61,766 nt of DNA from Elusimicrobia bacterium CG1_02_37_114 (lineage in GTDB: Bacteria; Elusimicrobiota; Endomicrobiia; CG1-02-37-114): contig MNXB01000005.1 in assembly GCA_001871125.1 (NCBI GenBank), positions 1 through 61,766 of the forward strand, read 5' to 3'. The translations under genes were made by a program, and so were the position numbers. Positions 1-46,564 of the stretch are shown piece after piece. Numbering within the stretch: the first letter of the stretch is position 1; every line of letters begins with the position of its first letter. The notes beneath the pieces are model-generated. The model saw only the letters and a program-made list of their open reading frames with translations. It made no database searches and was not told the DNA's origin.

Positions 1-272
1 AACAGGTTTTTCGGGAACCACAGTTTGGACATTTTGGCTTTTTTTTTGATACTTCCGCTTGAGTGTGATCACTACCGAAGCACGGTTCTCTGGTAACTCT
101 TGAATACGAGTCAAAGCTTTGAATCCTGGAAAATCATATGCTTGAGAAAGTCGTGTTATGTTCATACGTTTTTATACAATATTTCAAAGAGCATTTCAAG
201 ACTGAGTTTTTGAGAGGCTGTTTTCCGTCTACATACTATACTGATTCTATCCACTCAAAAAGGAGAAGAGCC
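1..272 (-). mobile_element. ISL3-family insertion sequence, left end and 5' part of transposase (runs off the window)
   Basis: On the minus strand the element starts GGCTCTTCTCC at 272, a typical ISL3 end, next to an AT-rich 8-mer (273-280, possible TSD). ATG at 165 gives MNITRLSQAYDFPGFK; a CPNCG zinc-finger motif follows in the -1 frame after an A9 run. Confidence 0.75.
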
Positions 273-1057
273 TTATTTATGTTTTGTTTCTTGATAAGTT
301 CATAAATCTTTTCCACTCTCTTTATATCGTGTAAAAAGTTATCTTCCGCTAAGTCAATGTATTTTTCTTCTATTTTTGACAGTTCCTCTACTACAGATTC
401 CGGACTTCGCGACAGATATTTTCCCTTCATAACTTTCCACAATGCACAGAAATTACATCTGAAAGGGCATCCTTTTGAAGTCATCATTGAAGCAACTGGA
501 CGCCAGGCACCTCTAAAATATTTATCCCTGTATTTTTTTGTCAACCCTCTATTTGGATAAGGCATTTTATCTAAATCTATATTTATATCCCTCGGTTTAG
601 TAAATACCGGATTTCCATTGTTGCGGATTGCCAACCCGGATATATATGAAAACCCCTGTTTTTTCGCATAAGCATTTACTAATTCTCTAAAAGTAATTTC
701 GCCTTCACCAATAACTATAATATCAATTGATTCTTTATTGAAATCATTTGGTAACATTGTAGCATGGTGTCCGCCGACAACTGTTAGAATTTTTTTATCG
801 TATGATTTAACCTTTTTTGAAATATCAATAATTTTATAGACATCTGTGGTATAACCGGTAATACCGACAATATCAGGTTTAAAATCAGCCAATTCTTTTT
901 CAAATACTGATTCCTCTATTCTCATATCAAGAATCTTCACATCATGTTCAGGTATTGATGCGGCAATTATCTCAAGGGCAAGAGGCTCTGTAAGATACGC
1001 TGTCCCCACACCTATTATATTTGGATTAATTGGTGGCTGAATTAGTAATATTTTCAT
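236..1057 (-). pseudogene. B12-binding radical SAM protein truncated by ISL3 insertion
   Basis: B12 domain (VVGGHHAT, GEGE) and CPFRCNFC motif. The SAM barrel breaks off after KKQNINK and the last 11 aa are read from the IS end. Confidence 0.85.
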
Positions 1058-2693
1058 TGATTCTGGTTATTATTTTTTTTATTTCCCTATGATTACCTGT
1101 TGAAAAATATTTTCTGCTCTTATCTCTGAATTCCATAGGTTGCATTCCTGCATATTTTGCTATCAATGCGGTATCACTTGTTACCTGTGTTAATATTCCA
1201 TTCTTTTCTAAAGTCTGGGCAAACAAACCTGTTTCCCGGACTAATTCTTTGTCTGTTTTATTGTTAATCTTAAAATAAGGCAGTGCCTTCCAAAGAATGG
1301 GGGGATAAATTATTTTCATTTTATACAACATCATCTGATTTAAAAATTCTTTCTCGTCAAGGATTTCAATGCCATATTTTTCACAATTTATAGTCCACTT
1401 TGTCCCGGGTATAAGAACAGGCGGGTCAACAATGACTGAATCAGGCCTTGTCTCTAATAAAAAATTCAATGTGTCCTGTTTTGTCTGTTCTGTTTCATTC
1501 GGTGCGGGGATTATTATACTTCCTGTTACATATATGCCTGTTTTTTTACAGGCATTTATTTTATTCTTCAGTTGTTCCACTTTCATTTTTTTGTTCATCA
1601 CTTCGTCCAGGAGTTTCTGGTTACCCGACTCAATACCAAACCAGAGAGAAAAACACCCAGAGTCTTTCATTAATTGAAAATCTTCAACAGATACTCCATT
1701 TCCTGAATTGGCAAAGGCGGTATATTCTACTTTCAGTTTTCTTTTCAGTATTTCTTCCGCTATTCCCTTAGCAAGGAGTTTAGGAGTATTAGACCCCGCA
1801 AACCTGAATACATTGATTCCATATTTATTTATAAGTCTTTCCATTTCATTTACTGCAGATTCAGGTGATTTTGTTTTCCATTTATTCCCGCTTTTTACCG
1901 GGTGCAGGCAGAAACTACAGTTATTCGGACAGCCCCTGCTTTCATCGGTAAATATAATTTTCAATTTTTGAGTGTCTCCCATAGAAAGATAGACTTCTTT
2001 ATCATATACCGGCAGAGGTAATTTATTTAAGTCGTCTATTATTTTTCTCGGAGTTGTTATAACTTTCCCATTTTCTTTGTAGATTAAATTAGGTATGTTT
2101 TCCAGATTCGTTTTACCCAGGACATAATCTGCGAGCATATTAATAACTTCTTCACCTTCGCCATATACAAGGACATCAAAAAGATTACACACATCAAGTA
2201 TCTTTTCCCTGAACCAGTCAACATGAGGTCCGCCTGCAAATATCGGCAGGGTGGGGAAATCTTTTTTTAATTGTTTTGCAATTGTTATGGAACCTTCAAA
2301 ACCATCACCCATCCAGAGTTTCATACCGACAAAATCAATGTTATGTTTTTTTACAATACTGCTAATTTCTATAGCAATTTCTTTTACTTTTTTCCTCTGT
2401 AACTGGTCTATTTCATTGTCTAATTTATGAAATATATCCAAATCTTTTTGCTTGGGTGACAGTTTTTGTTTCAAATTAACCAATATTCGTTTTATAACAT
2501 TCTCAATCCGGTCTTTGTATTCATACGGAAAAAGTTTTTCCACTATATCCACTGTAGCATAGTCCAGTATTATGGTCTTGTGACCTTTTGATATCAAAAC
2601 ACCTGCAAGATTTGCCAGTCCATTGTCAGGGACCAACATTCTCGGAGATTCAGGATAACCCGCATAATTTATCAATAGACTTTTAGTAAACAT
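1026..2693 (-). CDS. B12-binding radical SAM protein
   Basis: GGPH, GEGE, SRGCPNNCSFC and GIESG motifs. Confidence 0.9.
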   Translation of the reverse strand: MFTKSLLINYAGYPESPRMLVPDNGLANLAGVLISKGHKTIILDYATVDIVEKLFPYEYKDRIENVIKRILVNLKQKLSPKQKDLDIFHKLDNEIDQLQRKKVKEIAIEISSIVKKHNIDFVGMKLWMGDGFEGSITIAKQLKKDFPTLPIFAGGPHVDWFREKILDVCNLFDVLVYGEGEEVINMLADYVLGKTNLENIPNLIYKENGKVITTPRKIIDDLNKLPLPVYDKEVYLSMGDTQKLKIIFTDESRGCPNNCSFCLHPVKSGNKWKTKSPESAVNEMERLINKYGINVFRFAGSNTPKLLAKGIAEEILKRKLKVEYTAFANSGNGVSVEDFQLMKDSGCFSLWFGIESGNQKLLDEVMNKKMKVEQLKNKINACKKTGIYVTGSIIIPAPNETEQTKQDTLNFLLETRPDSVIVDPPVLIPGTKWTINCEKYGIEILDEKEFLNQMMLYKMKIIYPPILWKALPYFKINNKTDKELVRETGLFAQTLEKNGILTQVTSDTALIAKYAGMQPMEFRDKSRKYFSTGNHREIKKIITRINENITNSATN

Positions 2694-2702
2694 AGACTAC
2701 TT

Positions 2703-2731
2703 TTGACTTTATCCTTAAATTGATGTATAAT
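2703..2731 (+). promoter_or_regulatory. sigma-70 promoter of TA cassette 1
   Basis: TTGACT-17 nt-TATAAT, followed by SD GAGGTG. Confidence 0.75.
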
Positions 2732-2750
2732 AATTACAGAGGTGATAATT

Positions 2751-2930
2751 ATGACAACTATTCAAGAAGCAATTAAAGTAATTCGTGTAAATAAAATATC
2801 TATCCCTGAAAAGAAAAAAGGATTGGCTCGTCAATTGCTTGGGAAATTTAAAGGTATAATTCCCGAAAGTAAAACTGGTTGTGAGTTTATTCGAGAGATA
2901 AGGAATTCGCTCCATGGAAAAGTCAAATAA
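2751..2930 (+). CDS. putative antitoxin (VapB-like)
   Basis: Small ORF with SD; overlaps the downstream PIN-type gene. Confidence 0.6.
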   Translation: MTTIQEAIKVIRVNKISIPEKKKGLARQLLGKFKGIIPESKTGCEFIREIRNSLHGKVK

Positions 2931-3099
2931 AATTTTAATTTTTGATACAGAATTACTTGACCCTTTTGATGCTATACTATTGGCTATTGCCATTTCTTCT
3001 AAACCTCATCTGTTAATCTCTCGTGATAAATCATTTCTTAAAATAGCTTCAAACTACATTCCATCTTCTATTCCTGAAGATTTTACTTCTACTTCATAA
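2914..3099 (+). pseudogene. PIN/VapC toxin with internal deletion
   Basis: N-terminal ILIFDT motif joined directly to C-terminal DPFDAILLA...ISRDKSF motifs; only 61 aa. Confidence 0.65.
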
Positions 3100-4508
3100 A
3101 CAGTTTCATATTGTTTAGTGTTTTTTGTAACTTCTTCATTTATTCTAATATTATTGATTATAAGATGGCTATAGGCAATATTATTTGCATTTAGATTTAT
3201 CATTATAGGGGATATTCTATCATATTGTCTGACATTTGTTTTGTTCCACAAATTCCATAGATTCCTGAGCCTTTTAAAAATTGATTCATAACTAAATACC
3301 TGCCGTTGAACCCACCAAAACCCTTTTTCTAAAGTTTCCGGGCTAATTAGTTTAGGTTTAAAACAGGCATGCATACTGTCATATAATTCCCAATTCTGAT
3401 GTAATATTCTGTTTTCATTTTTTAATCTTTCAAATAATCTGGTCCCCGGATAAGGTGTTAATATATGAAAAGCTCCAGCAGAAATATTGGATTCATCAAA
3501 AAACCTTACCATATCTTCAAATACATATTCATCATCACAGTCATATCCAAAAATAAATGAACCATACATTTCAATGCCATAGGACTGTATTTTATTGATA
3601 TATTCAATATATTTCTCAGGGCCATAGGATTTATCTTTGTTCATTTGTTTTAAATTTTCTTCAGATAATGATTCCAGTCCAATAACGATTCTTTTGCAAC
3701 CGCTTTCGGCTAATAATTTCATCAATCCTTCTTCTTTAGCCAGACTGATAGGTAATGAAGCTTGGAATGTTGTCTTTAGGGGTATAAGTCTGATTAACAG
3801 TTCTTTAAGGTATCTTTTATTCGCCATCAGGTTATCGTCTCCAAAAAACAATAGATTTCTTCCCATACTTTTTAGCATTTCAACTTCCCTGATTACTGAT
3901 TCTATGGGTTTTGACCTGATTTTATTTCCTAAAAATATTTTAATTGAACAAAATTCACAGTCATAAGGACATCCCCGCGTGGTTTCAATAGTTGGTGTTG
4001 AATAATATTCGTTTCTTAATAAATCCCAGCGGGGGATTGGCTGATTTTTTAAATCAGGTTTTTGTTCAGAATGGTAGAATTTTTTAAGATTACCTTCCTT
4101 AAAATCATTGATTAAACCTCCCCAGACATTTTCCGCCTCTCCTATAACAACGCAGTCAGAATGTTGTATTGCCTCTTCAGGTAGGACAGACGGATGAATG
4201 CCACCCAGTACCACTTTTACTCCTCTCCTGCGAAATTCATCTGCAATTTGGTATGCTCTGACTGCCAGAGCAGTATATGCACTAATACCCACCATGTCAA
4301 CTTTCTCATCAAAATTTATTTCTTCAATATTTTCATCAATAATTGTTATCTCTGCAATAGGAGGAGTTAAACCTGCTATTAATGGTAAATTTAGTCTTGC
4401 AATGCCATACATTTTCCTGCCTGTGACCAGTGACCAAAAATCCTGATTCCACCAGCCCAATCCATCTTTGTTAACAGTGTCTTTAGGTGCTATTAGTTTT
4501 AGTTTCAT
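3054..4508 (-). CDS. B12-binding radical SAM protein
   Basis: GGIHPS, GEAE, TRGCPYDCEFC, GLES and TPYPGT motifs; SD GAGGAG. Confidence 0.92.
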   Translation of the reverse strand: MKLKLIAPKDTVNKDGLGWWNQDFWSLVTGRKMYGIARLNLPLIAGLTPPIAEITIIDENIEEINFDEKVDMVGISAYTALAVRAYQIADEFRRRGVKVVLGGIHPSVLPEEAIQHSDCVVIGEAENVWGGLINDFKEGNLKKFYHSEQKPDLKNQPIPRWDLLRNEYYSTPTIETTRGCPYDCEFCSIKIFLGNKIRSKPIESVIREVEMLKSMGRNLLFFGDDNLMANKRYLKELLIRLIPLKTTFQASLPISLAKEEGLMKLLAESGCKRIVIGLESLSEENLKQMNKDKSYGPEKYIEYINKIQSYGIEMYGSFIFGYDCDDEYVFEDMVRFFDESNISAGAFHILTPYPGTRLFERLKNENRILHQNWELYDSMHACFKPKLISPETLEKGFWWVQRQVFSYESIFKRLRNLWNLWNKTNVRQYDRISPIMINLNANNIAYSHLIINNIRINEEVTKNTKQYETVYEVEVKSSGIEDGM

Positions 4509-4534
4509 AATATTTCGCTCCTCTTGACTATTCC

Positions 4535-4563
4535 TTGACAGAATTTTTCCTTTATGTTATAAT
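4535..4563 (+). promoter_or_regulatory. consensus sigma-70 promoter of TA cassette 2
   Basis: TTGACA-17 nt-TATAAT with extended -10 TG. Confidence 0.85.
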
Positions 4564-4583
4564 TATTGTTAGAGGTGACTAAA

Positions 4584-4799
4584 ATGCAACAAACCATTGA
4601 TATACCAAAAGTTGAATTCATTACAACTCCAAAAGGAACACCTAAGTCGGTAGTTCTGGATATCAAAGATTGGAAAAGAATTGTTGAAACATTAAAGATT
4701 ATATCCAGTAAAGAATTAATGCTTTCTCTAACTCGTGCAAAAAACCAACTGCGAGATGGTATAAAACCATTAAGTTTGAAGGAGACCTTCAATTTATAG
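4584..4799 (+). CDS. antitoxin (Phd/YefM-like)
   Basis: FITTPKGTPKSVVLDIKDW pattern; SD GAGGTG; upstream of a RelE-like gene. Confidence 0.7.
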   Translation: MQQTIDIPKVEFITTPKGTPKSVVLDIKDWKRIVETLKIISSKELMLSLTRAKNQLRDGIKPLSLKETFNL

Positions 4800-5112
4800 A
4801 ACATTTTTCCTACCTGAATTTCAAAAGCAACTTAAAAGGTATTCCTCGCTAAAAAAGATTTTGCTCAAAAAAATCAATCTTCTGTCACAGAATCCATATA
4901 AGAATTGCAAAAGTGAATTTCTTGTTGGTGAACTTAAGGGACTGCGTTCTGCACGAATTACAAAATCATTTAGGGTTATTTTTTCTGTTTGTGAAGAATG
5001 TAGAACAAAGAAATTCCAGCAATTTATTGGTTGCTCTATGTCTCTATGTAATAGCATGGATTCAAAGACAATCATTTTTCTTACTTTCGGCCCCCATGAA
5101 AAAGTTTATTAG
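4792..5112 (+). CDS. RelE/StbE-family toxin with Cys-rich insert; probable ATT start
   Basis: LVGELKGLRSARITKSFRVIF and FGPHEKVY motifs. The frame is open upstream to ATT 4792, 7 nt after SD AGGAG. Confidence 0.75.
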   Translation: MYRTFFLPEFQKQLKRYSSLKKILLKKINLLSQNPYKNCKSEFLVGELKGLRSARITKSFRVIFSVCEECRTKKFQQFIGCSMSLCNSMDSKTIIFLTFGPHEKVY

Positions 5113-5707
5113 AGTTTATTTGGAATAAACTCCATTTTATTAATAAAAATTTTGGGAGAGGCAATATTGCCGATGTTTCTTTCTGGTATTCAATATATTC
5201 TTCACCGAATTTTTCAATAAGTGCTTTTTCTTCAAGGTGAATTCTTATTAAAGTTAATGTTAAGTATCCAATAAATGTCCACACAAATGTAAAATAAGCA
5301 TTGGCAATAATAGGAGCGATTAATATATCAAGTATACTAGTTAAATATGCAGGATGTCTTAAATATTTATAAGGCCCTGCCTTTATAAGTTCGTGTTTCT
5401 CTCTTATTTCAATATTCGGACTCCAAAATTTACCCAAATTTTTTACCGACCAGTATTTAAGTAGAAATCTAATTATAATGAGAAATAGTCCTAAACTAAC
5501 AACAAAAATATTTATTTTTCGTTGAATAACAAAGTATTCTACAAATGTACTGGTGAGCATCAATATATAAAATATTAATACAACGGGGAAAATCCATTTG
5601 TATTTAATCTGTCCTGTTTCTTTCCTCTTGTTGTTAAGGAATACTTCAGTAAATCCTATAGCAGTTCCAATAGTAAACAGTAAGATTAGAAAAACAGTAA
5701 AATTCAT
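5081..5707 (-). CDS. isoprenylcysteine carboxylmethyltransferase (ICMT/Ste14)-family membrane protein
   Basis: GPYKYLRHPAY and EEKALIEKFGEEY motifs; ATGA overlap with the ketosynthase stop. Confidence 0.9.
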   Translation of the reverse strand: MNFTVFLILLFTIGTAIGFTEVFLNNKRKETGQIKYKWIFPVVLIFYILMLTSTFVEYFVIQRKINIFVVSLGLFLIIIRFLLKYWSVKNLGKFWSPNIEIREKHELIKAGPYKYLRHPAYLTSILDILIAPIIANAYFTFVWTFIGYLTLTLIRIHLEEKALIEKFGEEYIEYQKETSAILPLPKFLLIKWSLFQINSNKLFHGGRK

Positions 5708-7005
5708 ATTGCACATTGGGTATATTCGTAAGGTAAATAGTTTCTCACTTGTCCGTTGTAATATTTTTCATCTTTATATTTTCTTATTGCCATTGAGATA
5801 TTGTTCCCGCCGGCTCCGAATGAATTAATTAATGCTGTGTTTATTTCTCTGCTGTTACGTGCTTTATTGGGGATATAATCAAGGTCGCATTCAGGGTCCT
5901 GCTCTTCATAGTTTATAGTCGGCGGAAGCCAGTTTGTATCAACTGCCAAAACTGAAGTTATAAATTGCAAACTTGCACTTGCAGACAATGACTGTCCTAT
6001 CATTGATTTAATGGAACTTATAGGTATTCTGTAAGCACACTCTCCCAGTGTAGATTTTATAGCATTTGTCTCTCTTTTATCAGCGACAACGGAAGAACTT
6101 CCGTGAGCATTGATGTAGTCTATTTCTTCAGGGGACACCTTTGCATCTTCCATGCATAATTTTATTGTTCTGGAGACATTCTTGCCCGTGGGTTCCATTT
6201 TGAAAATACTGTATGAATCATTTGTTACACCGTATCCGGCAATTTCAACGTATATCTTTGCCTTTCTTTCTAATGCATGGTCCAGTTTTTCTAATATTAC
6301 TATTCCCGCCCCTTCTCCCAGGATATATCCGTCCCTGTTTTTTTCAAATGGCCTGCTCGCTTTTGTCGGGTCGCCATTCCTTTTGCTAAGGACCTGTGAA
6401 GCACAGAAAGATTCAAAAGTTACAGGGAACAGAGGAGCCTCAGCCCCGCCGGCTATCATTATGTCTGCCCTGCCATTTGATATAATGTCATAAGCATGAG
6501 CAATCGCACTCAGTCCTGCGGAACAGCCCGTGGATATTGTTGTGTTGATTCCATTTATATTGAATTCAATTGCAATAATACCTACCGCAGAATTGGAATT
6601 CATTGACATAACAGAGAACGGACTAATTTTATCCATACCCTTGGTATAAAATACACAGCATTCCTTTTCTGCTATTTCAAGTCCTCCGATTGCGGTACCC
6701 AAAGAAATCCCTGCCCTATAACTGTCATTTATTTTCAGAGCAGAATCTTCTACAGCCATACGCGTAGAGGCTAAAGCAAATTGAGTAAACCTGCTCAGGC
6801 GGTTCGCCATTTTTCTGTCCATATAGTTTGCCGGGTTAAAATCAGAAATTTCACCCGCTACTTTAGAAGGATATTGAGAGATGTCAAAAGTGCTGATTTT
6901 TTTTATGCCTGATATACCACTTGTAAGTGCATGCCAGTAAGCATCTTTGCCGATGCCATTGGGAGATATTGCTCCTATTCCTGTGACTACTACTCTGGGT
7001 TTCAT
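5704..7005 (-). CDS. beta-ketoacyl-ACP synthase II (FabF)-like ketosynthase with atypical active site
   Basis: RVVVTGIG, TGCSAG, ASRPF, GEGAG and YINAHG motifs; KSMIGQ replaces KSMxGH. Confidence 0.9.
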   Translation of the reverse strand: MKPRVVVTGIGAISPNGIGKDAYWHALTSGISGIKKISTFDISQYPSKVAGEISDFNPANYMDRKMANRLSRFTQFALASTRMAVEDSALKINDSYRAGISLGTAIGGLEIAEKECCVFYTKGMDKISPFSVMSMNSNSAVGIIAIEFNINGINTTISTGCSAGLSAIAHAYDIISNGRADIMIAGGAEAPLFPVTFESFCASQVLSKRNGDPTKASRPFEKNRDGYILGEGAGIVILEKLDHALERKAKIYVEIAGYGVTNDSYSIFKMEPTGKNVSRTIKLCMEDAKVSPEEIDYINAHGSSSVVADKRETNAIKSTLGECAYRIPISSIKSMIGQSLSASASLQFITSVLAVDTNWLPPTINYEEQDPECDLDYIPNKARNSREINTALINSFGAGGNNISMAIRKYKDEKYYNGQVRNYLPYEYTQCAI

Positions 7006-7023
7006 TGGGTAACCTCAATATAG

Positions 7024-7040
7024 AGCAAATTTTCTGCCAG
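7024..7040 (-). promoter_or_regulatory. candidate sigma-54 (-24/-12) promoter
   Basis: CTGGCAGAAAATTTGCT fits GG-N10-GC; lies between a sigma-54 activator gene and the ketosynthase. Confidence 0.6.
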
Positions 7041-7140
7041 GTCAATAAGAAAAAGATAAAATTGGCATTAGATGAAACAACCTTGAGTAATCAGTTGTTT
7101 TTTCATTGACGGTTATTTTATAGTAAATTGGTGAGGTCGT

Positions 7141-7172
7141 ATAGTTTTTGTGCAGTCTGCACATAAAACTAT
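7141..7172. promoter_or_regulatory. palindrome; candidate enhancer (UAS) or terminator
   Basis: ATAGTTTT-TGTGCAG-T-CTGCACA-T-AAAACTAT, about 100-130 bp upstream of the -24 box. Confidence 0.45.
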
Positions 7173-8560
7173 GTCTTGTTTTGATGTTTAGGTTGGAACT
7201 TCCTTAATCCCAATAAATTTATTTTCCAAATCAGCGTATTGCGATGGATGTTCAGTAACTTGGCGGCATTAGTCTGGTTCCAGTTAGTCTTTTCCAGTAC
7301 GCCAAGTATATATTGTGTTTCAAATTGGTGGACTGCACCTTTGAATAATTTCTTTGGTTTTATACCCTTTTCTTCGCTGATTAGAATATCCAGGGGCAGT
7401 CTTTTGTGAGAGATGATTTTTTCTTTTCCTAAAGTTACAAGCCTTTCAGTGATATTCTGTAATTCCCGGACATTGCCAGGCCAGTTGTAATCTATTAAAT
7501 AGTTCATTGCTTGTTTTGAAATGTCCTGTATGTCCTTATTAAACATTTTACTATACATTTGAAGGAAATAATTCGCCAACATTGGAATATCTGATTTTCG
7601 TTCTCTTAACGGAGGCAGGGAAAGGGGGATAACATTCAATCTGTAATACAGGTCTTCCCTGAATGCGTTCTCTTTAACTGCTTTCTTAAGGTCAATATTT
7701 GTTGCCGAAATTATTCTTATGTCAATCTTAATCGTTTTCTGACTGCCCAATCTCTGGATTTCTCTTTCCTGGATTGCTCTTAGAATTTTTCCCTGCATAG
7801 CCATATCCATATTGCTGATTTCATCCAGGAACAAAGTCCCTGTATTTGCCAGTTCAAATCTGCCTAATTTTTGTGTCGTAGCGTCGGTAAAAGCACCCCT
7901 CTCATGTCCGAACAATTCGCTCTCTAATAAATTCTCCGGGATGGATGCACAGTCAACCGTAACAAAAGGTCTGTCTTTCCTCGGACTGTGGAAATGGATA
8001 GAGCGGGCAACCAGTTCTTTTCCTGTTCCGCTTTCCCCGTTTATCAGGACAGTCGTATCACCCTTGGCTACATCTGTAATCATATCATATACTTTCTTCA
8101 TATTTTCATCACTGCCGACAATATCGTCAAACATAAACGGTGGACTTAACTCGGACTTGAGATATTCAACTTCTCTGAGAAGCCCCTGCCTTTCTATTGC
8201 TTTCCTGATGGATTCCAGTAGTTCATCCACATCAAATGGTTTGGTTATGTAATCATAGGCGCCTAATTTCATTGCTTCAATTGCAGTTTTAACAGTCTTT
8301 ATGGCAGTGACCATAATAATATCTATGTTTTTACCCAACTCCTTTATTTTACGCAGGACATCCATACCGTCCATCTCCGGCATAAGTATATCCAGGAGTA
8401 CTACGTTTATATCCTCTTTCTTTATTTTATCCAGTGCGATTTCACCGCTGTTTGTTGCAAGAACATTATAATTATCTTCAAGTGCAACCTTAAAGGACTC
8501 TATTACACTCTGGTTATCATCAATAACTAAAACTGTAGGTAAAAATTTTTCTTCAGTCAT
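7169..8560 (-). CDS. sigma-54-dependent response regulator (NtrC/AtoC family)
   Basis: Receiver domain, GESGTGKE, ESELFGHERGAFTDA, WPGNVREL and Fis-type HTH. Confidence 0.95.
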   Translation of the reverse strand: MTEEKFLPTVLVIDDNQSVIESFKVALEDNYNVLATNSGEIALDKIKKEDINVVLLDILMPEMDGMDVLRKIKELGKNIDIIMVTAIKTVKTAIEAMKLGAYDYITKPFDVDELLESIRKAIERQGLLREVEYLKSELSPPFMFDDIVGSDENMKKVYDMITDVAKGDTTVLINGESGTGKELVARSIHFHSPRKDRPFVTVDCASIPENLLESELFGHERGAFTDATTQKLGRFELANTGTLFLDEISNMDMAMQGKILRAIQEREIQRLGSQKTIKIDIRIISATNIDLKKAVKENAFREDLYYRLNVIPLSLPPLRERKSDIPMLANYFLQMYSKMFNKDIQDISKQAMNYLIDYNWPGNVRELQNITERLVTLGKEKIISHKRLPLDILISEEKGIKPKKLFKGAVHQFETQYILGVLEKTNWNQTNAAKLLNIHRNTLIWKINLLGLRKFQPKHQNKT

Positions 8561-8576
8561 ACACAAATCCTTTCAC

Positions 8577-8673
8577 GTAGCTATTCGGTGAACCATGGTA
8601 AAAACTTGGAATAGACCCTTTAGGGTCATTTACGAGGCTAAAGCCTCTATTCCAACATAGTTCAGTGAGTTAT
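8577..8673. mobile_element. MITE copy 1
   Basis: Near-identical to 16813-16934; flanked by the duplication CCTTTCAC (8569-8576 and 8674-8681). Confidence 0.75.
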
Positions 8674-8680
8674 CCTTTCA

Positions 8681-8953
8681 CTATGCACCGTGTTCAAGTA
8701 AATTGAGTATCTCGTCCTTTTTTTCAATTATAATCTTTATATCTTTTGCGGTTAACCCGACAATCTTACTCATTTTCATTTCGCTGTCCCCTTCCCCTTT
8801 CCAGTAGGACCTTTTTTCTAACTTTGGTTTTCTTTTGTTCCAGCTGACAACCCGCAGGATATATACGTCTTTGTCGGTCTCTTCTTTATCCAGCACAAGC
8901 AATATATCTTCTGTCAATTCTCTTATTTTTCTACCTGTTTTTTTCCCCGGCAT
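8681..8953 (-). CDS. PC4/YdbC-like ssDNA-binding small protein
   Basis: LRVVSWNKRKPKLEKRSYW...GLT pattern. Confidence 0.6.
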   Translation of the reverse strand: MPGKKTGRKIRELTEDILLVLDKEETDKDVYILRVVSWNKRKPKLEKRSYWKGEGDSEMKMSKIVGLTAKDIKIIIEKKDEILNLLEHGA

Positions 8954-8970
8954 TTCTAACCCCCTAACTT

Positions 8971-9037
8971 AATCCCTCTTTATCCCCCTTTATTCCTACG
9001 GAACCTACTTCGGTCAAAGGGGGAGTGATGGGGGATT
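8971..9037. repeat. REP-like palindrome carrying a ~20-bp mini-insert
   Basis: TCCCCCTTT...AAAGGGGGA arms enclose TCCTACGGAACCTACTTCGG. Confidence 0.55.
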
Positions 9038-10301
9038 ACCCAATTTTATCAAAACTGGTATAAGATTTGAGTGCGGACGGTATGGTTATTGACCCGTCAG
9101 TATTCTGATAATTTTCCAGAATTGCAGCAAATATCCTGCCCACAGCCAACCCCGAACCGTTTATTGTATGGACATATTTTTTGTTATTTTCTGTTCGGAC
9201 CTTTATATTCAGCCTTCTTGACTGAAAATCCCTGCAGTTACTGCAGCTTGAAACCTCACGCCACATTTTTTCGCCCGGCATCCATACTTCCAGGTCGTAT
9301 GTTTTTGCTGAAGTAAACCCCAAATCGGCACCGCAGAGTTCAATAACCCTGTAAGGCAGTTTGAGTTGTTTTAAAACATCTTCTGCATCGTTTAATAATT
9401 TTTCAAGTTCATCCGCTGAATCTTCAGGTTTAGTAAACTTGAACAGTTCAACTTTATTAAACTGGTGGTTGCGGATTAATCCTTTTGTATCCTTGCCGTA
9501 TGAACCCGCTTCCCGGCGGAAACACGCTGAATAAGAGACATATTTTTTCGGCAGTGCGTCTTTATCAAATATTTCATCAGAATGCAAGTTTGCTATTGTT
9601 ACTTCTGCTGTCGGTATGAGATAAAATTCATCGTCTGCACATTTGAATACTTCCTCTTTGAATTTAGGTAACTGCCCCGTGCCTGTAATTGATTTTTTAT
9701 TGACCAGGTAAGGTGTCATAACTTCTGTGTAACCGTGCTGTTTTGTATGCAAATCAAGCATAAACGAAATAATTGCACGTTCAAGTACAGCACCGCGGTC
9801 TTTCAACACTGCAAACCTTGAAGATGACATTTTCGTTGCAATTTCAAAATCAATTATACCTAATTTTGAACCGAGTTCCCAGTGTGGTTTTGGTTTATCT
9901 AATTTCTGTTCGCCGGTTTCTAAATTTTCACGGATTTTTTTGTTGTCTTTTTCTGATTTACCTGTCGGCACACTCTCATCGGGTAGATTTGGTACGGTCA
10001 GCATAAACTCTTCTATTTTATTTTCCAAGTCTAATAATATTTTTTCTTTGTTTTGTATTGTTTCCCGGATTTCTTCCGTCTCTTTCATAAGTTTTTCTGC
10101 GGGTTTCTTTTCCTTCTTTAATAGTCCAACCTGTTCAGAAGTTTTCTTGCGTTTTTCACGGAGTGCATCTATTTCACTGATAAGTTTCCGCCTCCCGCTG
10201 TCCCACTCCAGAAGTTCAGAAAAGTCTATCTTTATCCCGCGTGTGCTCAATCTCTCTTCTACTTCTTCCCTGTTTTCTCTTATAAACTTCAAATCTAACA
10301 T
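9036..10301 (-). CDS. serS: serine--tRNA ligase
   Basis: [24 protein letters not shown] and EVSSCSNC motifs. Confidence 0.98.
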
Positions 10302-17153: not shown

Positions 17154-18977
17154 TTATTCAACGGTAACTGATTTGGCTAAATTGCGTGGTTTGTCCACAT
17201 CACAGCCAAGTTTTACAGCAACATGATAAGCTAATAACTGCAGTGGTACAGCAGTAACTATTGGTGTAATATCTTCCTGGCAGGCAGGGATATAAATAAC
17301 ATCGCTGGCGATTTCAGCAATTTTTTTATCACCTTCAGTAGCAATGGCAATGACAATCCCTTTTCTGGCAATCACTTCCTGGACATTGTTCAACATCTTG
17401 TCATAAAGTTCGTCTTTTGGAATTAAACATACTACCGGCATATCCTGGTTTATAAGCGAAATGGGTCCGTGTTTTATTTCTCCCGCAGGATAACCTGTGG
17501 CATGTATGTAAGATATTTCCTTTAGTTTCAATGTCCCTTCCAGAGCATTGGGATAATTTACTCCCCTGCCCAAAAATATGAAGTCGCGTTTTTGATAATA
17601 CTTCTCTGCACATTTCAGAATGATATCCTGTTTTTTCAAGACCTTATCAATTGCATCCGGTATTTGTTTCAGTTTTTCAATTTTATTTTCCAGATTTTCT
17701 TCAGTAAGTATATAGTTGAGTTTTGCTAAATATAATGTGAAAAGATAAAGCGTTGTTAACTGTGCAGTATATGCTTTTGTTGAAGCCACTCCTATCTCAG
17801 GCCCTGCCATAATCGGTAATATCCCGTCGGATTCCCTTGCGATTGTACTGCTTGTGACATTGACTATAGAGAGAACCTTAACGAATTTACTTTTACCTTC
17901 ACGGATACCCGCGAGAGTATCCGCTGTTTCACCCGACTGTGATATGGCAAGCATCAGAGTATCTCCCTCGGCGATCGGGTTTCTATACCTGAATTCCGAA
18001 GAGACGTCAACTTCCGTGTGGATATGCGCATATTTTTCAAGCCAGTATTTTGCAACCATCCCTGCATGCCAGGAAGTACCGCATGCCTGGATAATAATCC
18101 TTTTGACTTTGGCAAGATATTGTTTGTCCAGGTTCATTTCATCCAGTATAATTTTGCTGTTTTTTATTCTTTCATGCAGGATTTTTTCAATCACCCTGGG
18201 TTGTTCGTTTATTTCCTTCAGCATGAAGTAATCATAGTTGCCTTTATCCAGCCGGGAGATTTCTATATCAACTGTTTCAACCTTTTTTTCAATAATTTTA
18301 CCCTCAAGGTTCATTACTTTTACCTTGTCCTTTGTTATTACAGCAATTTCATTGTCTTTCAGATACATAACCTTGCGGGTAAGCGGTAAAATAGCAGGTA
18401 TATCGGAAGCAACAAAATTTTCTCCGTTACCCAAACCTATAATCAGAGGACCCCCGAGTTTTACACAGATAATTTTGTCAGGTTCTTTTTCGCTTAAAAC
18501 ACAGATGGCATACGCTCCTTTTAGTTCCTTAACCGCCCTACAGACAGCTTTTTCTAAATTGGCGTCCATAAATTTTTCTATGAGATGTGGAATGACTTCA
18601 GTATCTGTTTCTGATTCAAAGACATGCCCTTCTTTTATGAGATTTTCCTTTAAATCCTGATAATTTTCTATTATACCGTTATGCACAACTGCAATTTGTT
18701 TTTTGCAATCGGTATGGGGATGAGCATTTATTTCTGTCGGTTCACCGTGTGTTGCCCATCTCGTATGTCCTATCCCGATGTTTCCTCCAAGGGGTTTGAG
18801 GTTCAAGGATTCAGCCAGTTTTTTAAGTTGTCCTTCTTTTTTCCGTATGTCCAGTTCGCCCTCAAGGATGGTTGCTATCCCGGCAGAATCATAACCGCGG
18901 TACTCAAGCCTTTCCAGTCCTACGAGTAAGACCGAATCTACATATTTATTGCCCACATAACCTATTATTCCACACAT
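17154..18977 (-). CDS. glmS: glutamine--fructose-6-phosphate aminotransferase
   Basis: MCGIIG, GHTRWATHG and PRNLAKSVTVE motifs. Confidence 0.98.
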   Translation of the reverse strand: MCGIIGYVGNKYVDSVLLVGLERLEYRGYDSAGIATILEGELDIRKKEGQLKKLAESLNLKPLGGNIGIGHTRWATHGEPTEINAHPHTDCKKQIAVVHNGIIENYQDLKENLIKEGHVFESETDTEVIPHLIEKFMDANLEKAVCRAVKELKGAYAICVLSEKEPDKIICVKLGGPLIIGLGNGENFVASDIPAILPLTRKVMYLKDNEIAVITKDKVKVMNLEGKIIEKKVETVDIEISRLDKGNYDYFMLKEINEQPRVIEKILHERIKNSKIILDEMNLDKQYLAKVKRIIIQACGTSWHAGMVAKYWLEKYAHIHTEVDVSSEFRYRNPIAEGDTLMLAISQSGETADTLAGIREGKSKFVKVLSIVNVTSSTIARESDGILPIMAGPEIGVASTKAYTAQLTTLYLFTLYLAKLNYILTEENLENKIEKLKQIPDAIDKVLKKQDIILKCAEKYYQKRDFIFLGRGVNYPNALEGTLKLKEISYIHATGYPAGEIKHGPISLINQDMPVVCLIPKDELYDKMLNNVQEVIARKGIVIAIATEGDKKIAEIASDVIYIPACQEDITPIVTAVPLQLLAYHVAVKLGCDVDKPRNLAKSVTVE

Positions 18978-25432: not shown

Positions 25433-27037
25433 TCAATAGGCATTAAACCGGAGAAGTATCTTAAATGATGAAGACACGGCCGGTTTCAGAACAGTTACTT
25501 CAGAAGGATAGTCGGGTCCCGGACCCAAGCCTGCAATCAGTTCGTCTTTACCGTCACCATCTATATCGCCGGCGGCAACGTTTAAACCGTAAGCATAGCG
25601 CAGGTCAGGATAAACAATAGTGTCAAATATGAAGTTCAGGTTTCCGTCAAGGACGGTAAGAAAAGAATTGTTACACTCGTGTACCCCGTATCCCCTGACG
25701 ATTTCGTCATACCCGTCACCGTTTATATCACCGGAATTCAAAATTACACCCGCATCCCAGCCGTTGCGTTCCTTTGGTAGCGGCAGCCGACTTATTTCGT
25801 TACCCTCAAAATCTATTATTTTTAAATTTGTATCGCTCCGGTTGAGATAAACAAGCCCTATAGCCATTTCAGCTTTCTTATCTCCGGTAAAATTGCCGCA
25901 GGTTACATTTATACCGTGTCTCATCGTACCATCAGCTCTCATATCCCTGTTGTAAGGGTAAAGTGTTTTTATTTTTTTCCCGTTGCCCGTCCATATTTTT
26001 AGTTCAGGAAAACACGTAAGACCCGGAGCAGTTCCTACAACTATTTCGTCTTTCCCGTTACCGTCAAAATCACCGGAGGCAACCTCTGCACCGTAATCTT
26101 TCCACCTGCTGAAAGCCCTGAACGACAGGATTTCTTTCCCTTCCCAGTCAAAGACTTTGACTATTGCTTTGTTCCCCGGGCTGATGCCGGGGCTTACAAT
26201 TATTTCTTTTTTCCCGTCCCCATCAATATCACCGACTGCAATGTTAATCCCAAACTTGGTTTTCTTATCAAAAGCAAAAAAACTGCTGATTTCATTTCCT
26301 TTTGAATCAAAAACCTTTATTAAAGAATCATTTTCTGAAGAGGGTCCCCTGCCTGTAATTATTTCTATCTTGCCATCACCATTTACATCCCCACAAGCTA
26401 CTTTAACGCCACTGCCATAATAATAAACACAAATGGTTTCTACCGGCCCGAACTTGAGATTGGCAACCAATCCCGGAACAAGGTAGGACTGCAGGAAAAT
26501 ACTGACTATTCCATGGCATAATCCCAGGGTAAAAATGTTTCTGTTGCGCGAGAAAAGATAAGACCAGATAATTCCGCCGAAAAAAGTAATAATCATCAAA
26601 GGAATGTTTAATGCATGGAGCCAGCTGAAAATTATAGCAGTCCCCAGTATGGATAAAAACCTGTTATTCAACGCACGGTCCAGACGTATATAAAAGAAAC
26701 CCTGGGTAATAAACTGCTGAATGATTCCCCAGGAAATCCAGTACATAATGAATTTTAGATTCACAGGCCATATAGGGAACTGGTAGTGATTGTTTAATGC
26801 AATGATTAGTCCTACCGAAAGAATAATTATTATAGAAACTTTCCACAGTTCACTAAAGAAATTATCAAACCTTACCCCGAGGTCATATAACCGTTCCCTG
26901 TGCAGGTAAAATGAAAGGACGATAAAGCCGAAACATAGCACAATAGTCAGGGGAAGGAGGAGTCGCTGCATCCTGAATAGCCACATATACGAGAAATATA
27001 TTATTAAAGGCGGGAATATTTCAATGATTTTACCCAT
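25433..27037 (-). CDS. fusion of a CPBP (Abi/CAAX)-like membrane domain and FG-GAP repeats
   Basis: N-terminal TM helices with QQF..QG, FSWLH and HG; multiple GDxDGDGxxE repeats. Confidence 0.8.
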   Translation of the reverse strand: MGKIIEIFPPLIIYFSYMWLFRMQRLLLPLTIVLCFGFIVLSFYLHRERLYDLGVRFDNFFSELWKVSIIIILSVGLIIALNNHYQFPIWPVNLKFIMYWISWGIIQQFITQGFFYIRLDRALNNRFLSILGTAIIFSWLHALNIPLMIITFFGGIIWSYLFSRNRNIFTLGLCHGIVSIFLQSYLVPGLVANLKFGPVETICVYYYGSGVKVACGDVNGDGKIEIITGRGPSSENDSLIKVFDSKGNEISSFFAFDKKTKFGINIAVGDIDGDGKKEIIVSPGISPGNKAIVKVFDWEGKEILSFRAFSRWKDYGAEVASGDFDGNGKDEIVVGTAPGLTCFPELKIWTGNGKKIKTLYPYNRDMRADGTMRHGINVTCGNFTGDKKAEMAIGLVYLNRSDTNLKIIDFEGNEISRLPLPKERNGWDAGVILNSGDINGDGYDEIVRGYGVHECNNSFLTVLDGNLNFIFDTIVYPDLRYAYGLNVAAGDIDGDGKDELIAGLGPGPDYPSEVTVLKPAVSSSFKILLRFNAY

Positions 27038-41454: not shown

Positions 41455-42336
41455 TTATTCTATATTACTGAATATCTTATTGAGTTCTTTGAGAGTTTTA
41501 TCCATGCTGAATGATTTTCTCTCTCCAAGCGTCAAAACATCGAGAAGTTCGGCTTCAATGCGTGAGTTCATATCGCTGATTTCTTTTTCTGAACGTCCCA
41601 TATTGGTGCGGTATTTTTTAAGATTTCCGTCAAATTTATCTTCGGATAGTTTTCTTTTAAACAAATCCAGTAGTTCTTTATCATTGAAGTTAAAACCCGT
41701 CCTGATTAAATATCCAAGGTCATAAAAATCGCGGGGTGCTACAGTAAGACGTGTAGCAGCTGCCCGCATTTTTTCTGCGACAAGTTCCTTAATCGCAAGG
41801 CAACTGACCATTCCTCCTTCAAACAACGGTTCTTTCGTAAAAGGGTGCAGGAATTTATGGTTAATTTTCTGTCTTGATACTGTCAGGAGCGGATTAAACC
41901 GTAATCCCATCTCAAGTTTTATTGATTGTTTTTTATTCAGGACAACGGAATTATAGTCAACATAAAAAATATATTGAGTGGACTGGTTAAACCCGGATTT
42001 GTCAATATTTTCAATCCTCATATTGAACTTTTCGGCATATTCCCTGATTTTATTTTTTACCGGTTTAATTAGATTACTGCGGATTGTACGTGTAATCTCA
42101 CCTGCAGGCAATATCATTGAAAAATCCAAATCCTCGCTTAAGCGATAATAGGAGTAATATATTTTACTCAGGCAAGTCCCTCCCTTGAAAATAAGATTAT
42201 CATTTAGACTATTAATATCTGAAAGCAGAAGCGTAATGTAATAATCTTTTTCCAAAAGATTTAACGGAAATCCACTTTGTGCCGAAGTCCTTTCAAGCAA
42301 TTTTAAAAACTCTTCCCTGTTATTGTGCATCATCAA
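41455..42336 (-). CDS. AbiEii-family nucleotidyltransferase toxin (type IV TA)
   Basis: EKDY, FKGGT, RLSEDLDF and RDFYD motifs. Confidence 0.93.
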   Translation of the reverse strand: MMMHNNREEFLKLLERTSAQSGFPLNLLEKDYYITLLLSDINSLNDNLIFKGGTCLSKIYYSYYRLSEDLDFSMILPAGEITRTIRSNLIKPVKNKIREYAEKFNMRIENIDKSGFNQSTQYIFYVDYNSVVLNKKQSIKLEMGLRFNPLLTVSRQKINHKFLHPFTKEPLFEGGMVSCLAIKELVAEKMRAAATRLTVAPRDFYDLGYLIRTGFNFNDKELLDLFKRKLSEDKFDGNLKKYRTNMGRSEKEISDMNSRIEAELLDVLTLGERKSFSMDKTLKELNKIFSNIE

Positions 42337-43105
42337 TAATAATTCTCCATTGCGGATTAATCGTGCCCTTTCGTGATTTAGAAGCGTATAAAGTAATTAA
42401 CGCAGTATTTCTTATACTTCTCATTAACGGGGATAGCAGGGCGTTTGACACACCGCATTTTTCAAGAAAATACCCTATACGTTTACGCGTAGAAATGCCG
42501 GGGAATTTAAGAGCATAGCTTATAAGCCTCTTAATATTGGTATCTTTGTTGCTTACCTGTTTTTTTATTATTTCAAAAACATTCTTTAGACTGCCTATGG
42601 GGTCAGGGAAGTAAACCAAATCAACGAGCGTTCTTTCCCGATCGCTGACCAGGACTTCCGAATTTTGAATTTTTATTTTAGTAAGCCCGTACATCCGGCA
42701 CGGTGAAACCTTCAACAGTTTAAAAGATACACCGGATATGATACGTTCCCTCTGGAGCGAAGTATTTAATACATAAAATGTTTGAAAAATCTGTTCTGTA
42801 AAACCATAGTAATTATACATCATTGAATAACCTACATAATAGTTACCTTTAGGAAAGAGAACAGGGGGAATCAGGAATTCATTAATTCGGGTTCCATCGG
42901 GACCCGCTTCAAGCGGAGAAAAATAATATACCCCTCTCGTAATGGGTTTTAAAATCCCCTTTTTCTTCAATTGGTAAATAACCTGGCGGGTTAATACTAA
43001 CTTTCCGAAAAGACGATTAAACTGTTCATTCGTAATAATGCTGACCTTTTCGTAAGTTAATCGGGCTATAACCTCTGATTCTTTAGGACCTAAATATTGA
43101 GGCAT
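42320..43105 (-). CDS. AbiEi-family antitoxin / transcriptional regulator
   Basis: N-terminal wHTH, YYGFTEQ, SDRERTLVD and KRIGY motifs. Confidence 0.88.
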   Translation of the reverse strand: MPQYLGPKESEVIARLTYEKVSIITNEQFNRLFGKLVLTRQVIYQLKKKGILKPITRGVYYFSPLEAGPDGTRINEFLIPPVLFPKGNYYVGYSMMYNYYGFTEQIFQTFYVLNTSLQRERIISGVSFKLLKVSPCRMYGLTKIKIQNSEVLVSDRERTLVDLVYFPDPIGSLKNVFEIIKKQVSNKDTNIKRLISYALKFPGISTRKRIGYFLEKCGVSNALLSPLMRSIRNTALITLYASKSRKGTINPQWRIIIDDAQ

Positions 43106-43227
43106 TGTATTTATATTTACCTTGTTCGTTTAATAAACGATTAACGTAAATATTTATACAATATAAAAAATGAAAAGTCAAATTTTTAGATATTAATGGT
43201 CGCTGTCCCTATTTTTCCTGCCGCACA

Positions 43228-43728: not shown

Positions 43729-43756
43729 TTTATTTGCCCTTTCTCCCTCACCAAAT

Positions 43757-46398: not shown

Positions 46399-46467
46399 AT
46401 AAAAAATTCCTTAAAATGGATTTATTTAGAACAACCATGGTTTTAATGGGGTAATAACTAATATATA

Positions 46468-46564
46468 ATACCCTATTTAATTAGAATTATACCCTATTTT
46501 AGCGTTAATGTCAATAGGGTATTTAAAATATATTTTGCCCCATTTAAACATCAATTACCCTATT
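46468..46564 (-). promoter_or_regulatory. hsdM promoter with repeated ATACCCTATT boxes
   Basis: TTGACA(46514)-17-TATAAT(46491). Boxes at 46468, 46489, 46513 (inverted) and 46556 (9-mer). Confidence 0.7.

Follow-up and report, generated by a model that had tools for sequence, protein, structure and literature searches.

The window analysed here is a stretch of 61,766 nucleotides from Elusimicrobia bacterium CG1_02_37_114 that makes up the complete contig MNXB01000005.1 (termed C121 in the following), one of 130 contigs of a 2.09-Mb genome with an estimated completeness of 96%. Close to its left end, it carries genes for a sigma-54 activator of the NtrC type, a FabF-like ketosynthase (KS), a methyltransferase of the ICMT family and three cobalamin (B12)-dependent radical S-adenosylmethionine (SAM) enzymes, designated rSAM_A, rSAM_B and rSAM_C. 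Together with genes on a second contig (C119), these constitute a conserved but patchily distributed operon under a dedicated two-component and predicted sigma-54 circuit, which most likely serves to build a small methylated lipid from fatty-acid intermediates, a proposal to which we give an about even chance of being correct. Our best inference for the product is a methylated, fatty-acyl-derived lipid acting as a signal or as a membrane component. The public sequencing runs that hold the stretch are labeled as groundwater or aquifer metagenomes.

All genes of the cluster reside on the minus strand of the window, and the six genes listed in an earlier note on this DNA were all found at the places given there. 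The gene for the activator (7169-8566) is followed by that for the ketosynthase (5704-7005) and that for the ICMT-family protein (5081-5707), the ATG of which overlaps the KS stop codon as ATGA, just as described before. Downstream follow the intact genes for rSAM_C (3054-4508, 484 residues) and rSAM_B (1026-2693, 555 residues) and, finally, an open reading frame (ORF) of 273 codons at 236-1057. The earlier description needs correction in two respects. First, the ORF at 236-1057 is a 5' fragment of the rSAM_A gene and not the whole gene. Second, the genes of the operon are not contiguous, as two toxin-antitoxin-like cassettes on the plus strand are interspersed between them, i.e., a Phd/YefM-like gene with a RelE/YoeB/ParE-like gene (4566-5112) between ICMT and rSAM_C, and two short ORFs (2742-3099), weakly identified as a possibly decayed VapBC-like pair, between rSAM_C and rSAM_B. 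The suspicion that the cluster continues to the left of the insertion sequence (IS) at the contig end proved right in that the remainder of the locus is located on C119, the window being a whole contig. C119 encodes residues ~302-445 of rSAM_A (5-379), a fourth B12-dependent radical SAM protein that is 54% identical to rSAM_C (453-1814), a histidine kinase with HisKA_7TM, GAF, HisKA and HATPase domains (1857-4055), a regulator composed of a receiver (REC) and an HTH_8 domain (4380-4958) and a second kinase (4961-6208). In total, four of the six genes for B12-binding-domain proteins in this genome belong to this one locus.

Among the 401 genomes of the phylum that were sampled, KS orthologues (E ≤ 1e-135; 54-66% identity) are present in 11 and rSAM_A orthologues (at least 53% identity) in 10, and ten genomes contain both. 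In nine of these ten, KS and rSAM_A share a locus, and in the tenth (G041) they lie at the ends of two contigs. The eleventh genome with KS (G117) has a cluster featuring an A-like gene of 30% identity, two copies of type B and one copy of type C. The recurrent order is a short sigma-54-like ORF (in most loci), the activator, the promoter, KS, a variable set of genes, the kinase with seven transmembrane segments (7TM) and GAF domain, a regulator that is either single-domain or bears a helix-turn-helix (HTH) domain, and a second kinase. The variable set after KS comprises ICMT, A (sometimes duplicated), B, C, a ThiF-family gene in three loci (L005, L117, L213) and an ORF of 316 codons in two. 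One to four B12-dependent radical SAM genes, falling into the three recurrent types A, B and C, are found per cluster. L118 and L115 exemplify a compact arrangement (activator-KS-ICMT-rSAM_A-kinase), L144 a fuller one. When one genome per species of bacteria and archaea was scanned with an rSAM_A alignment as query, eight records labeled Elusimicrobiota or Endomicrobiales appeared with the same gene orders and were not counted again, in addition to two short fragments. In five records with other labels (L142, L144, L146, L148, L149), i.e., a Planctomycetota metagenome-assembled genome (MAG), two unclassified "bacterium" MAGs, a Clostridia record and a Candidatus Kuenenia record (L149), KS lies beside rSAM_A and activator, ICMT or kinase. 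Homologues therefore do recur together in other genomes, as the earlier proposal of a cluster required, and by this conservation of gene order the cluster is a real recurrent unit rather than a chance neighborhood. Since the families that hold it are scattered within the phylum, the trait appears to be accessory and to have been gained or lost repeatedly.

With regard to the enzymes expected of a lipid pathway, no acyl carrier protein (ACP) was detected by tblastn in any of 18 cluster stretches (17 loci and the first 16 kb of the window). In the annotated loci, neither a reductase nor a dehydratase was seen, and neither an acyltransferase nor a thioesterase was recognized. The ORF of 316 codons after KS (L116:8540-9490 and L214:9889-10353) lacks a Pfam match; in L116 its product resembles outer-membrane channels of the Phenol_MetA_deg type (ESM Atlas features, score 0.98, 199/256), and passage of a hydrophobic compound across the outer membrane is a lead that this ORF offers and nothing beyond a lead.

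The ketosynthase (ketoacyl-synt, 165.6 bits; Ketoacyl-synt_C, 104.8 bits) is related to but distinct from FabF. It falls just short of the FabF equivalog model TIGR03150 (479.8 bits, cut-off 493.75) and passes the broader subfamily model NF005589 (469.8 bits, cut-off 387). Fold and length are the same, and the identity to bona fide FabF proteins amounts to 45-47%. FabF is encoded next to acpP and fab genes, whereas the cluster protein is accompanied by radical SAM enzymes, ICMT and regulators. The housekeeping acpP-fabF pair of this genome lies on contig C56. The KS in the window is a second copy, 45% identical to the FabF on C56, and has no ACP gene as neighbor. The absence of an ACP from the window had been noted before, and matches to PF00550 in the genome are confined to C56 and a second contig, C54. 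The ACP-like gene on C54 (29513-29767) was considered as a partner of the cluster and dismissed, as no link to the cluster was found. It is situated between two NagB-like (glucosamine-6-phosphate-deaminase-like) genes followed by a gene resembling ADP-forming acyl-CoA synthetases, near a contig end that contains masked bases.

The active site sets the cluster proteins apart. In ten cluster KS sequences aligned with the genome's own FabF and other FabF proteins, the Cys of the active site is conserved, as are the first His (NAHGSSS) and the Lys in KSM, whereas the second catalytic His is replaced by Gln: the motif reads KSM[IV]GQ (KSMIGQ in the window) instead of KSMTGH in FabF, and G[LA]GGNN takes the place of GFGG[HT]N. 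In a wider set of relatives, the latter motif is G[ALQM]GGNN as opposed to GFGG[HK]N in FabF, and the gate Phe is exchanged for Ala, Leu, Gln, Met or Val. Alignment to the nearest solved structure, Bacillus subtilis FabF (4ls5, E 8.5e-122), shows the same substitutions. The Cys-His-His triad is hence not conserved in the window protein, termed KS-Q below, or in any of the aligned cluster orthologues with the exception of the Kuenenia-labeled L149. A tree of 101 KS sequences, from which those shorter than 390 residues, those containing X and duplicates had been dropped beforehand, placed the cluster proteins in one clade of 15 sequences among the FabF proteins (Shimodaira-Hasegawa-like approximate likelihood ratio test, 98), and the L149 protein is the only member of this clade that keeps the second His. 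Among the 120 best relatives in a collection of 5.8 billion proteins, 70 have Gln and 43 His while 7 did not match the pattern; all pattern-matching sequences among these 120 with at least 53% identity have Gln. Where a source name is given, it reads beta-ketoacyl-ACP synthase II or "family protein". A literature search yielded no paper pairing "Cys-His-Gln" with "ketosynthase". By analogy with the textbook mechanism of the Cys-His-Asn condensing enzymes, we infer that the amide of Gln may substitute for the second His as that of Asn does.

All three radical SAM proteins contain a B12-binding (PF02310) and a Radical_SAM (PF04055) domain above cut-off (77.3 and 32.4 bits for the rSAM_A fragment, 45.8 and 72.4 bits for rSAM_B, 48.7 and 74.1 bits for rSAM_C, the last with an additional DUF4070 at 23.2 bits) and therefore belong to class B, and CxxxCxxC motifs are apparent in the three translations (CPFRCNFC, CPNNCSFC, CPYDCEFC). 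The earlier statement that they are divergent holds, with 25-28% identity to the rSAM_A type where BLAST aligns them. The most constant of the cluster types is rSAM_A, with which full-length orthologues from related loci share 50-67% identity. Orthologues of rSAM_B are present in 9 related loci (44-69% identity) and those of rSAM_C in L116, L143, L144, L146 and L213 (52-58% identity). None of the cluster's radical SAM proteins attains an equivalog cut-off, and the nearest solved structures, OxsB, 9ccb, TokK, CysS and AprD4, are remote (E 1e-6 to 1e-18; 1.4e-15 for rSAM_B with 9ccb). Likewise, none of the enzymes treated in the accessible part of a 2026 review on radical SAM enzymes that modify lipids (Tes, Mss, Gms, GrsA/B, Gmm, Cds, HpnH/J/P/R, Jaw5 and the ladderane candidates) matches them by family score.

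The best-scoring named family for rSAM_A is HpnR, the hopanoid C-3 methylase, itself a class B radical SAM enzyme with the same domain order. A function as hopanoid C-3 methylase was rejected: with TIGR04367, the fragment scores 137.5 bits and an intact orthologue, over its full length, 239 bits, i.e., far below the cut-off of 650, and SQHop_cyclase_C was not found in the 96%-complete genome. In view of this lack of a detectable squalene-hopene cyclase, hopanoids are not considered as substrate of rSAM_A. More distant rSAM_A homologues (39-48% identity) occur in 63 loci from many phyla, where they stand alone among housekeeping genes. These 63 neighborhoods revealed neither a common partner nor a substrate, the neighbors including TetR regulators (11 loci), YchF (8), KS (6) and RecJ (5), with FeeM in 2. 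In the latter two, which are Desulfobacterales or delta-proteobacterial records, a FeeM-type N-acyl amino acid synthase (136.2 bits) is encoded just upstream of the rSAM_A homologue (L150:173-1321 and L151:8961-9938), which may be taken as another hint that this family acts on acyl lipids.

A FabF paralogue in the company of several B12-dependent radical SAM genes had led the earlier note to recall ladderane-type clusters, i.e., to consider a ladderane-like or otherwise cyclized fatty acid as the product. The anammox cluster comprises, in the accessible parts of the sources, a dedicated ACP, amxFabZ, an amxFabF2/mutant-FabF heterodimer, a phytoene-desaturase-like enzyme and a B12-dependent radical SAM protein (10.64898/2026.05.19.726425; PMC13459092; PMC2649909). 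As far as described there, anammox "Cluster I" (KustE3603-3608) resembles the cluster studied here in that FabF paralogues with altered catalytic residues are encoded next to a B12 radical SAM gene, and differs in that amxFabFmut has lost the catalytic Cys that the cluster KS retains. One of the related loci, L149, stems from a Kuenenia-labeled record, and TIGR04072 gives weak matches of 45 bits (rSAM_A), 98.2 bits (rSAM_B), 84.6 bits (rSAM_C) and 102.2 bits (the C119 paralogue). Nevertheless, all of these and every other TIGR04072 score in the genome remain below the cut-off of 360, neither an ACP nor a KS/mutant-KS pair was found, Pfam detected no FabZ or desaturase-like gene in the window or in the loci scanned, and the hosts are not anammox bacteria. 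The resemblance thus does not hold up, and a ladderane-like pathway appears barely credible. In the Omnitrophota-labeled locus L082 (~3800-9300), a KS with the normal His lies beside a KS with Asn in this position, adjoining a B12 radical SAM gene; this pair is reminiscent of the anammox KS/chain-length-factor-like pair, and both sequences are long-branched in the KS tree.

The third enzyme is a member of the ICMT family, as evident from the match to PF04140 (69.2 bits, cut-off 24) and from alignment with the solved ICMT 4a2n over residues 6-183 (E 2.5e-18). It does not belong to the isopcys_mtase equivalog NF040696 (97.3 bits, cut-off 160) and also matches PEMT, a phospholipid methyltransferase family (50 bits, cut-off 25). 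Orthologues with 36-50% identity are encoded in 12 related loci. Pairing of a condensing enzyme with an ICMT-like protein is known from BpsA/BpsB and DquA/DquB, where, according to the accessible part of the source, a type III polyketide synthase using a fatty-acyl-derived starter precedes a membrane methyltransferase of the ICMT family for which activity on alkylpyrone or resorcinol lipids is reported or proposed (PMC9827899). The cluster does not belong to this group, as its KS is of the FabF type and not a chalcone-synthase-like type III polyketide synthase, and it adds B12 radical SAM enzymes, its own kinase and activator, and sigma-54 control.

The same enzymes could be read as maturing a peptide, be it a lipopeptide or a ribosomally synthesized and post-translationally modified peptide (RiPP), with C-methylation by the B12 radical SAM enzymes, activation by ThiF, methylation of the C-terminus by ICMT and acylation, or extension of an acyl group, by KS. 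The textbook substrate of ICMT is indeed a peptide C-terminus, three loci contain ThiF, and among the NCBIfam models rSAM_B matches that of the RiPP enzyme ApyD best, with a further match to rSAM_ocin_1; these two scores (144.6 and 96.9 bits), however, remain far short of the required 750 and 281.85. Most loci lack ThiF, which a search of this genome with the L005 protein did not detect either, and no gene for a protease, a transporter or a recognition element is constant. Furthermore, 117 intergenic ORFs of 20-120 codons from 18 loci showed no cross-locus similarity at E ≤ 0.01, so that a conserved precursor gene is not visible, although a very short or distant precursor could escape such a comparison. 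Taken together, we regard peptide maturation as very improbable.

The activator contains a receiver domain (Response_reg, 103.6 bits), a sigma-54-interacting AAA+ domain (Sigma54_activat, 241.9 bits) and a Fis-type HTH (HTH_8, 40.8 bits), all above cut-off, and hence is of the NtrC type. NCBIfam models are not reached (AtoC, 470.2 vs. 714; PrsR, 402.8 vs. 502.6; LuxO, 373.7 vs. 800 bits). In 14 loci, an orthologue (43-68% identity) immediately precedes KS. In the sigma-54-contact loop, the usual GAFTGA is altered by one residue to GAFTDA, as it is in the Elusimicrobiota-type orthologues. GSFTDA or GAYTDA is found in three relatives, GAFTGA occurs in the Planctomycetota- and Kuenenia-labeled loci, and another activator of this genome (on C5) likewise has GAFTDA. 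At 8475, within the 5' end of the activator gene, contigs from four out of four runs lack 3 bases of the window, a length difference of one codon.

A motif of the sigma-54 (-24/-12) type, TGGCAG-N5-TTGCT (7039..7024, minus strand), precedes KS, its TTGC ending 19 nt upstream of the start codon. The same motif was found 19-85 nt upstream of KS in eight of nine loci. Of the 15 loci for which the upstream region is present, 9 show the strict pattern TGG[CT]A-N6-TTGC at a distance of 19-101 nt before the first operon gene; four more have near-matches recognized by eye (TTGGAA-N6-TTGC in L144 and L214, GGGCAC-N5-TTGC in L142 and L149), and no convincing sigma-54 promoter was apparent in the other two, L115 and L148. 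A loose version of the motif matches 48 times on both strands of the 2.09-Mb genome compared with ~32 matches expected from a rough estimate assuming uniform composition. As the loose motif is no commoner than this rough expectation, the evidence for a promoter lies in its conserved position and not in its count. On the basis of the conserved -24/-12 motif next to the activator gene, the operon is predicted to be sigma-54-dependent, in agreement with the sigma-54 control proposed in the earlier note.

A second motif of this type is positioned downstream of the kinase gene and before the next regulator in 7 of the 13 loci that extend that far (L115, L116, L118, L120, L125, L142 and L213; L125 is represented by C119:4198-4212, TGGCAG-N5-TTGC), and the same activator may therefore drive the downstream pair of REC-HTH_8 regulator and second kinase as well. 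The sensor part of the C119 kinase is wholly embedded in the membrane (HisKA_7TM), and the protein aligns with the PrsK model from end to end (positions 2-679). PrsK and PrsR of the PEP-CTERM system likewise combine a kinase with multiple transmembrane segments, GAF, HisKA and HATPase domains with an NtrC-type partner, and differ in that the cluster kinase and activator control lipid-type enzymes. Membership in this system was excluded, since the kinase attains 152-202 bits against the cut-off of 300 (TIGR02916), the activator falls short of TIGR02915 as detailed above, and Exosortase_EpsH (PF09721) was not found in the genome. Judged by domain architecture, kinase and activator are relatives of PrsK and PrsR, not members.

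In eight loci (L115, L116, L118, L119, L120, L121, L122 and L213), a short sigma-54-like ORF of 330-420 codons resides directly upstream of the activator gene. Its products match the DNA-binding part of RpoN alone (Sigma54_DBD; ~184-434 of the rpoN model), the N-terminal activator-interacting region being missing or unrecognizable. The activator in the window lacks such a neighbor, and three ORFs of this kind, 35-38% identical to the cluster type, are present elsewhere in the genome (C5, C3, C33).

From these components, the following sequence of events can be proposed. The kinase with its membrane-buried sensor would phosphorylate the activator, which would then open the sigma-54 promoter. 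An acyl chain supplied by housekeeping acyl-ACP would be condensed with malonyl-ACP by KS-Q, with Gln in the role of Asn. As no reductase is available, a lipid of the beta-keto or pyrone type would be retained. Unactivated carbons would be methylated by the B12 radical SAM enzymes, and the membrane-bound ICMT protein would O-methylate a carboxyl or enol oxygen, as described or proposed for BpsB and DquB on alkylpyrones in the part of the literature accessible.

Several points weigh against this scheme. FabF-type enzymes lose their condensing activity when the second His is mutated, and KS-Q might therefore condense poorly or not at all and, e.g., act as an acyl carrier or transferase instead. 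Recognition of neither a thioesterase nor an acyltransferase in the annotated loci leaves the fate of the KS product unexplained. Since B12 radical SAM enzymes also perform ring contractions, cyclizations and other reactions, methylation is an assumption here, and enzymes of the ICMT family normally methylate the C-termini of peptides. The content of the cluster varies, too: ICMT was not found in L116, L119 and L121 (the latter two being truncated by the end of a contig), rSAM_B occurs in just a part of the loci, as does rSAM_C, ThiF is confined to three, and in the genome studied here a core enzyme, rSAM_A, is interrupted.

The interruption calls for closer inspection. Similarity of the rSAM_A fragment to its orthologues of 441-459 residues stops near residue 266, the gene is split between C121 and C119, and ~35 codons are unaccounted for. 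At the break, positions 1 to ~272 of the window represent the end of an ISL3-family element on the minus strand, the ORF for the N-terminus of its transposase (165..1) running off the contig. Positions 113-285 are 78% identical to C61:12067-12239, and 244-278 matches sequences near the ends of contigs C36 and C93. The 55-residue N-terminal ORF is 60% identical to an ORF on C61, where a DDE_Tnp_ISL3 transposase (226.8 bits) then follows. Contigs of four public runs were aligned to the window and their summed depth was compared: positions 1-287 exceed the rest by 1079 to 67 in run X2 and by 334 to 35 in run X8, with 3- to 16-fold differences across the four runs. By this depth, the ISL3-type element is present in multiple copies in the communities. 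The cluster contigs break at 273 in the run assemblies. In two of the four runs (X2 and X8), sequence that does not resemble the IS extends the cluster contig leftward from 273 by 2372 nt. An uninterrupted allele may therefore coexist in these communities; on whether the IS allele is fixed, the contig data are uninformative. Short joints at 7484-8250 with sides of 21-29 letters, also seen in the run contigs, probably derive from activator genes of other organisms. A metagenome scan with rSAM_B returned an identical fragment of 2172 bp and otherwise remote relatives, from which neither synteny nor the sequence at the IS junction could be gained.

The two plus-strand cassettes are further signs of disturbance. 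The Phd-like antitoxin ORF (4566-4799) scores 21.1 bits with TIGR01552 phd_fam (cut-off 20.8). The toxin frame (4780-5112) has no ATG, GTG or TTG start before 4861, and its matches are all below cut-off (YafQ, 25.9 bits; Txe/YoeB, 21.7 bits; ParE_toxin, E 0.0072). In the second pair (2742-2930 and 2914-3099), the tail of a PIN domain in the second ORF is the sole match and lies below cut-off (E 0.009, 17.1 bits). With rSAM_A split at an ISL3 end, two opposite-strand cassettes between the operon genes, one of them with a toxin frame devoid of a normal start, and the ThiF gene and adjacent sigma-54-like gene of relatives missing, the cluster could be a decaying remnant without present function in this genome, whatever the intact cluster does elsewhere. 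On the other hand, the reading frames of KS, ICMT, rSAM_B, rSAM_C, activator and kinase are open and intact, as is the promoter, the X2 and X8 contigs beyond 273 would fit a coexisting uninterrupted allele, and several relatives lack one or another radical SAM type, so that loss of rSAM_A need not kill the pathway. We consider decay rather unlikely, but it has to be reckoned with.

If the operon provides a methylated lipid, as we favor, two purposes are conceivable and are not separated: the lipid might diffuse and be sensed by the kinase encoded next to it, or membrane lipids might be remodeled anaerobically under the control of a kinase that senses the membrane. For the first, the layout recalls systems in which a fatty-acyl-derived small molecule is made beside a polytopic membrane kinase, namely CqsA/CqsS/LuxO and PhcB/PhcS. 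The Phc signal is a fatty-acid methyl ester, and in the Cqs system the signal reaches an NtrC-type sigma-54 activator. The likeness concerns the layout only; the ORFs of the cluster belong to other Pfam families, and neither a CqsA-type nor a PhcB-type synthase is among them. The outer-membrane-channel-like ORF is a weak hint in the same direction. In its most complete form, the proposal would be a self-contained lipid-signal circuit: KS-Q, up to three kinds of B12 radical SAM enzymes and the O-methyltransferase would produce a volatile or membrane-soluble, methyl-decorated lipid under anoxic conditions, and the adjacent 7TM-GAF kinase would sense this lipid in the membrane and, via the dedicated sigma-54 activator (joined in most relatives by the short sigma-54 paralogue), induce the synthesis of the lipid itself together with the downstream regulator pair. 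In this full extent, the circuit is a speculative and quite unlikely proposal; if true, it would represent a quorum-sensing-like system in Elusimicrobiota, Planctomycetota and neighboring uncultured phyla.

For the second purpose, a precedent exists in DesK of Bacillus, a kinase that senses a physical property of the membrane. Here, the 7TM kinase would sense the membrane and switch on enzymes acting on the bulk of its lipids: KS-Q would alter chain length, the B12 radical SAM enzymes would introduce methyl branches into already existing acyl chains independently of oxygen and the ICMT/PEMT-like protein would methylate a head group. The sensor domain lying entirely within the membrane, the additional PEMT match of the ICMT protein, the membrane lipid as target of HpnR, the nearest named family of rSAM_A, and the solitary occurrence of distant rSAM_A homologues in many phyla, as might be expected of a general lipid-modifying enzyme, are all in line with such a function. 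However, a distribution as patchy as 11 out of 401 genomes suits an accessory trait more than core membrane homeostasis, the operon evidently can be lost or disrupted, as happened here, two loci encode the outer-membrane-channel-like protein, and nothing ties the enzymes to phospholipid substrates. Overall, we consider membrane remodeling rather unlikely.

Apart from the cluster, the window contains a defense and mobile island (41455-57161) with an AbiEii/AbiEi pair, a type I restriction-modification system (HsdS, HsdM, HsdR) with a gene for a Fic-domain protein in between, RadC and a type II methylase with an R.Pab1-like endonuclease. A protein of 534 residues combining an Rce1-like CAAX protease domain with FG-GAP repeats is encoded at 25433-27037, 20 kb away from the ICMT gene. 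In eukaryotes, Rce1 and ICMT are successive enzymes of prenyl-protein processing; no link between the two genes was seen here. Next to the activator gene, a 90-residue ORF (8681-8953) is 66% identical to an ORF beside GlmS in L005. GlmS is encoded at 17154-18977 in the window, and the small ORF looks like local chromosomal synteny rather than a part of the cluster.

The proposal of an undescribed pathway agrees with equivalog cut-offs not being reached in NCBIfam, and literature searches, which missed most subscription journals, yielded neither a description of this cluster nor a matching characterized pathway. Clusters for lipids derived from type II fatty acid synthesis and tailored by radical SAM enzymes are of a known kind; what is distinctive here is the clade of Cys-His-Gln ketosynthases, the three recurrent types of B12 radical SAM enzymes and the dedicated circuit of kinase, activator and predicted sigma-54 promoter. 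As a consequence for annotation, members of the KS-Q clade, which are labeled FabF in public records, should not be called housekeeping FabF. If our reading holds, the cluster would provide an oxygen-independent route to methyl-decorated lipids from ordinary fatty-acid intermediates, assign substrates and reactions to enzyme families that now have none and offer a test case for a Cys-His-Gln ketosynthase. Methyl-branched lipids serve as environmental biomarkers, and a new biosynthetic source would matter in this field, too. For Elusimicrobiota and other uncultured phyla from groundwater, it would possibly be the first system for small-molecule signaling or membrane adaptation.

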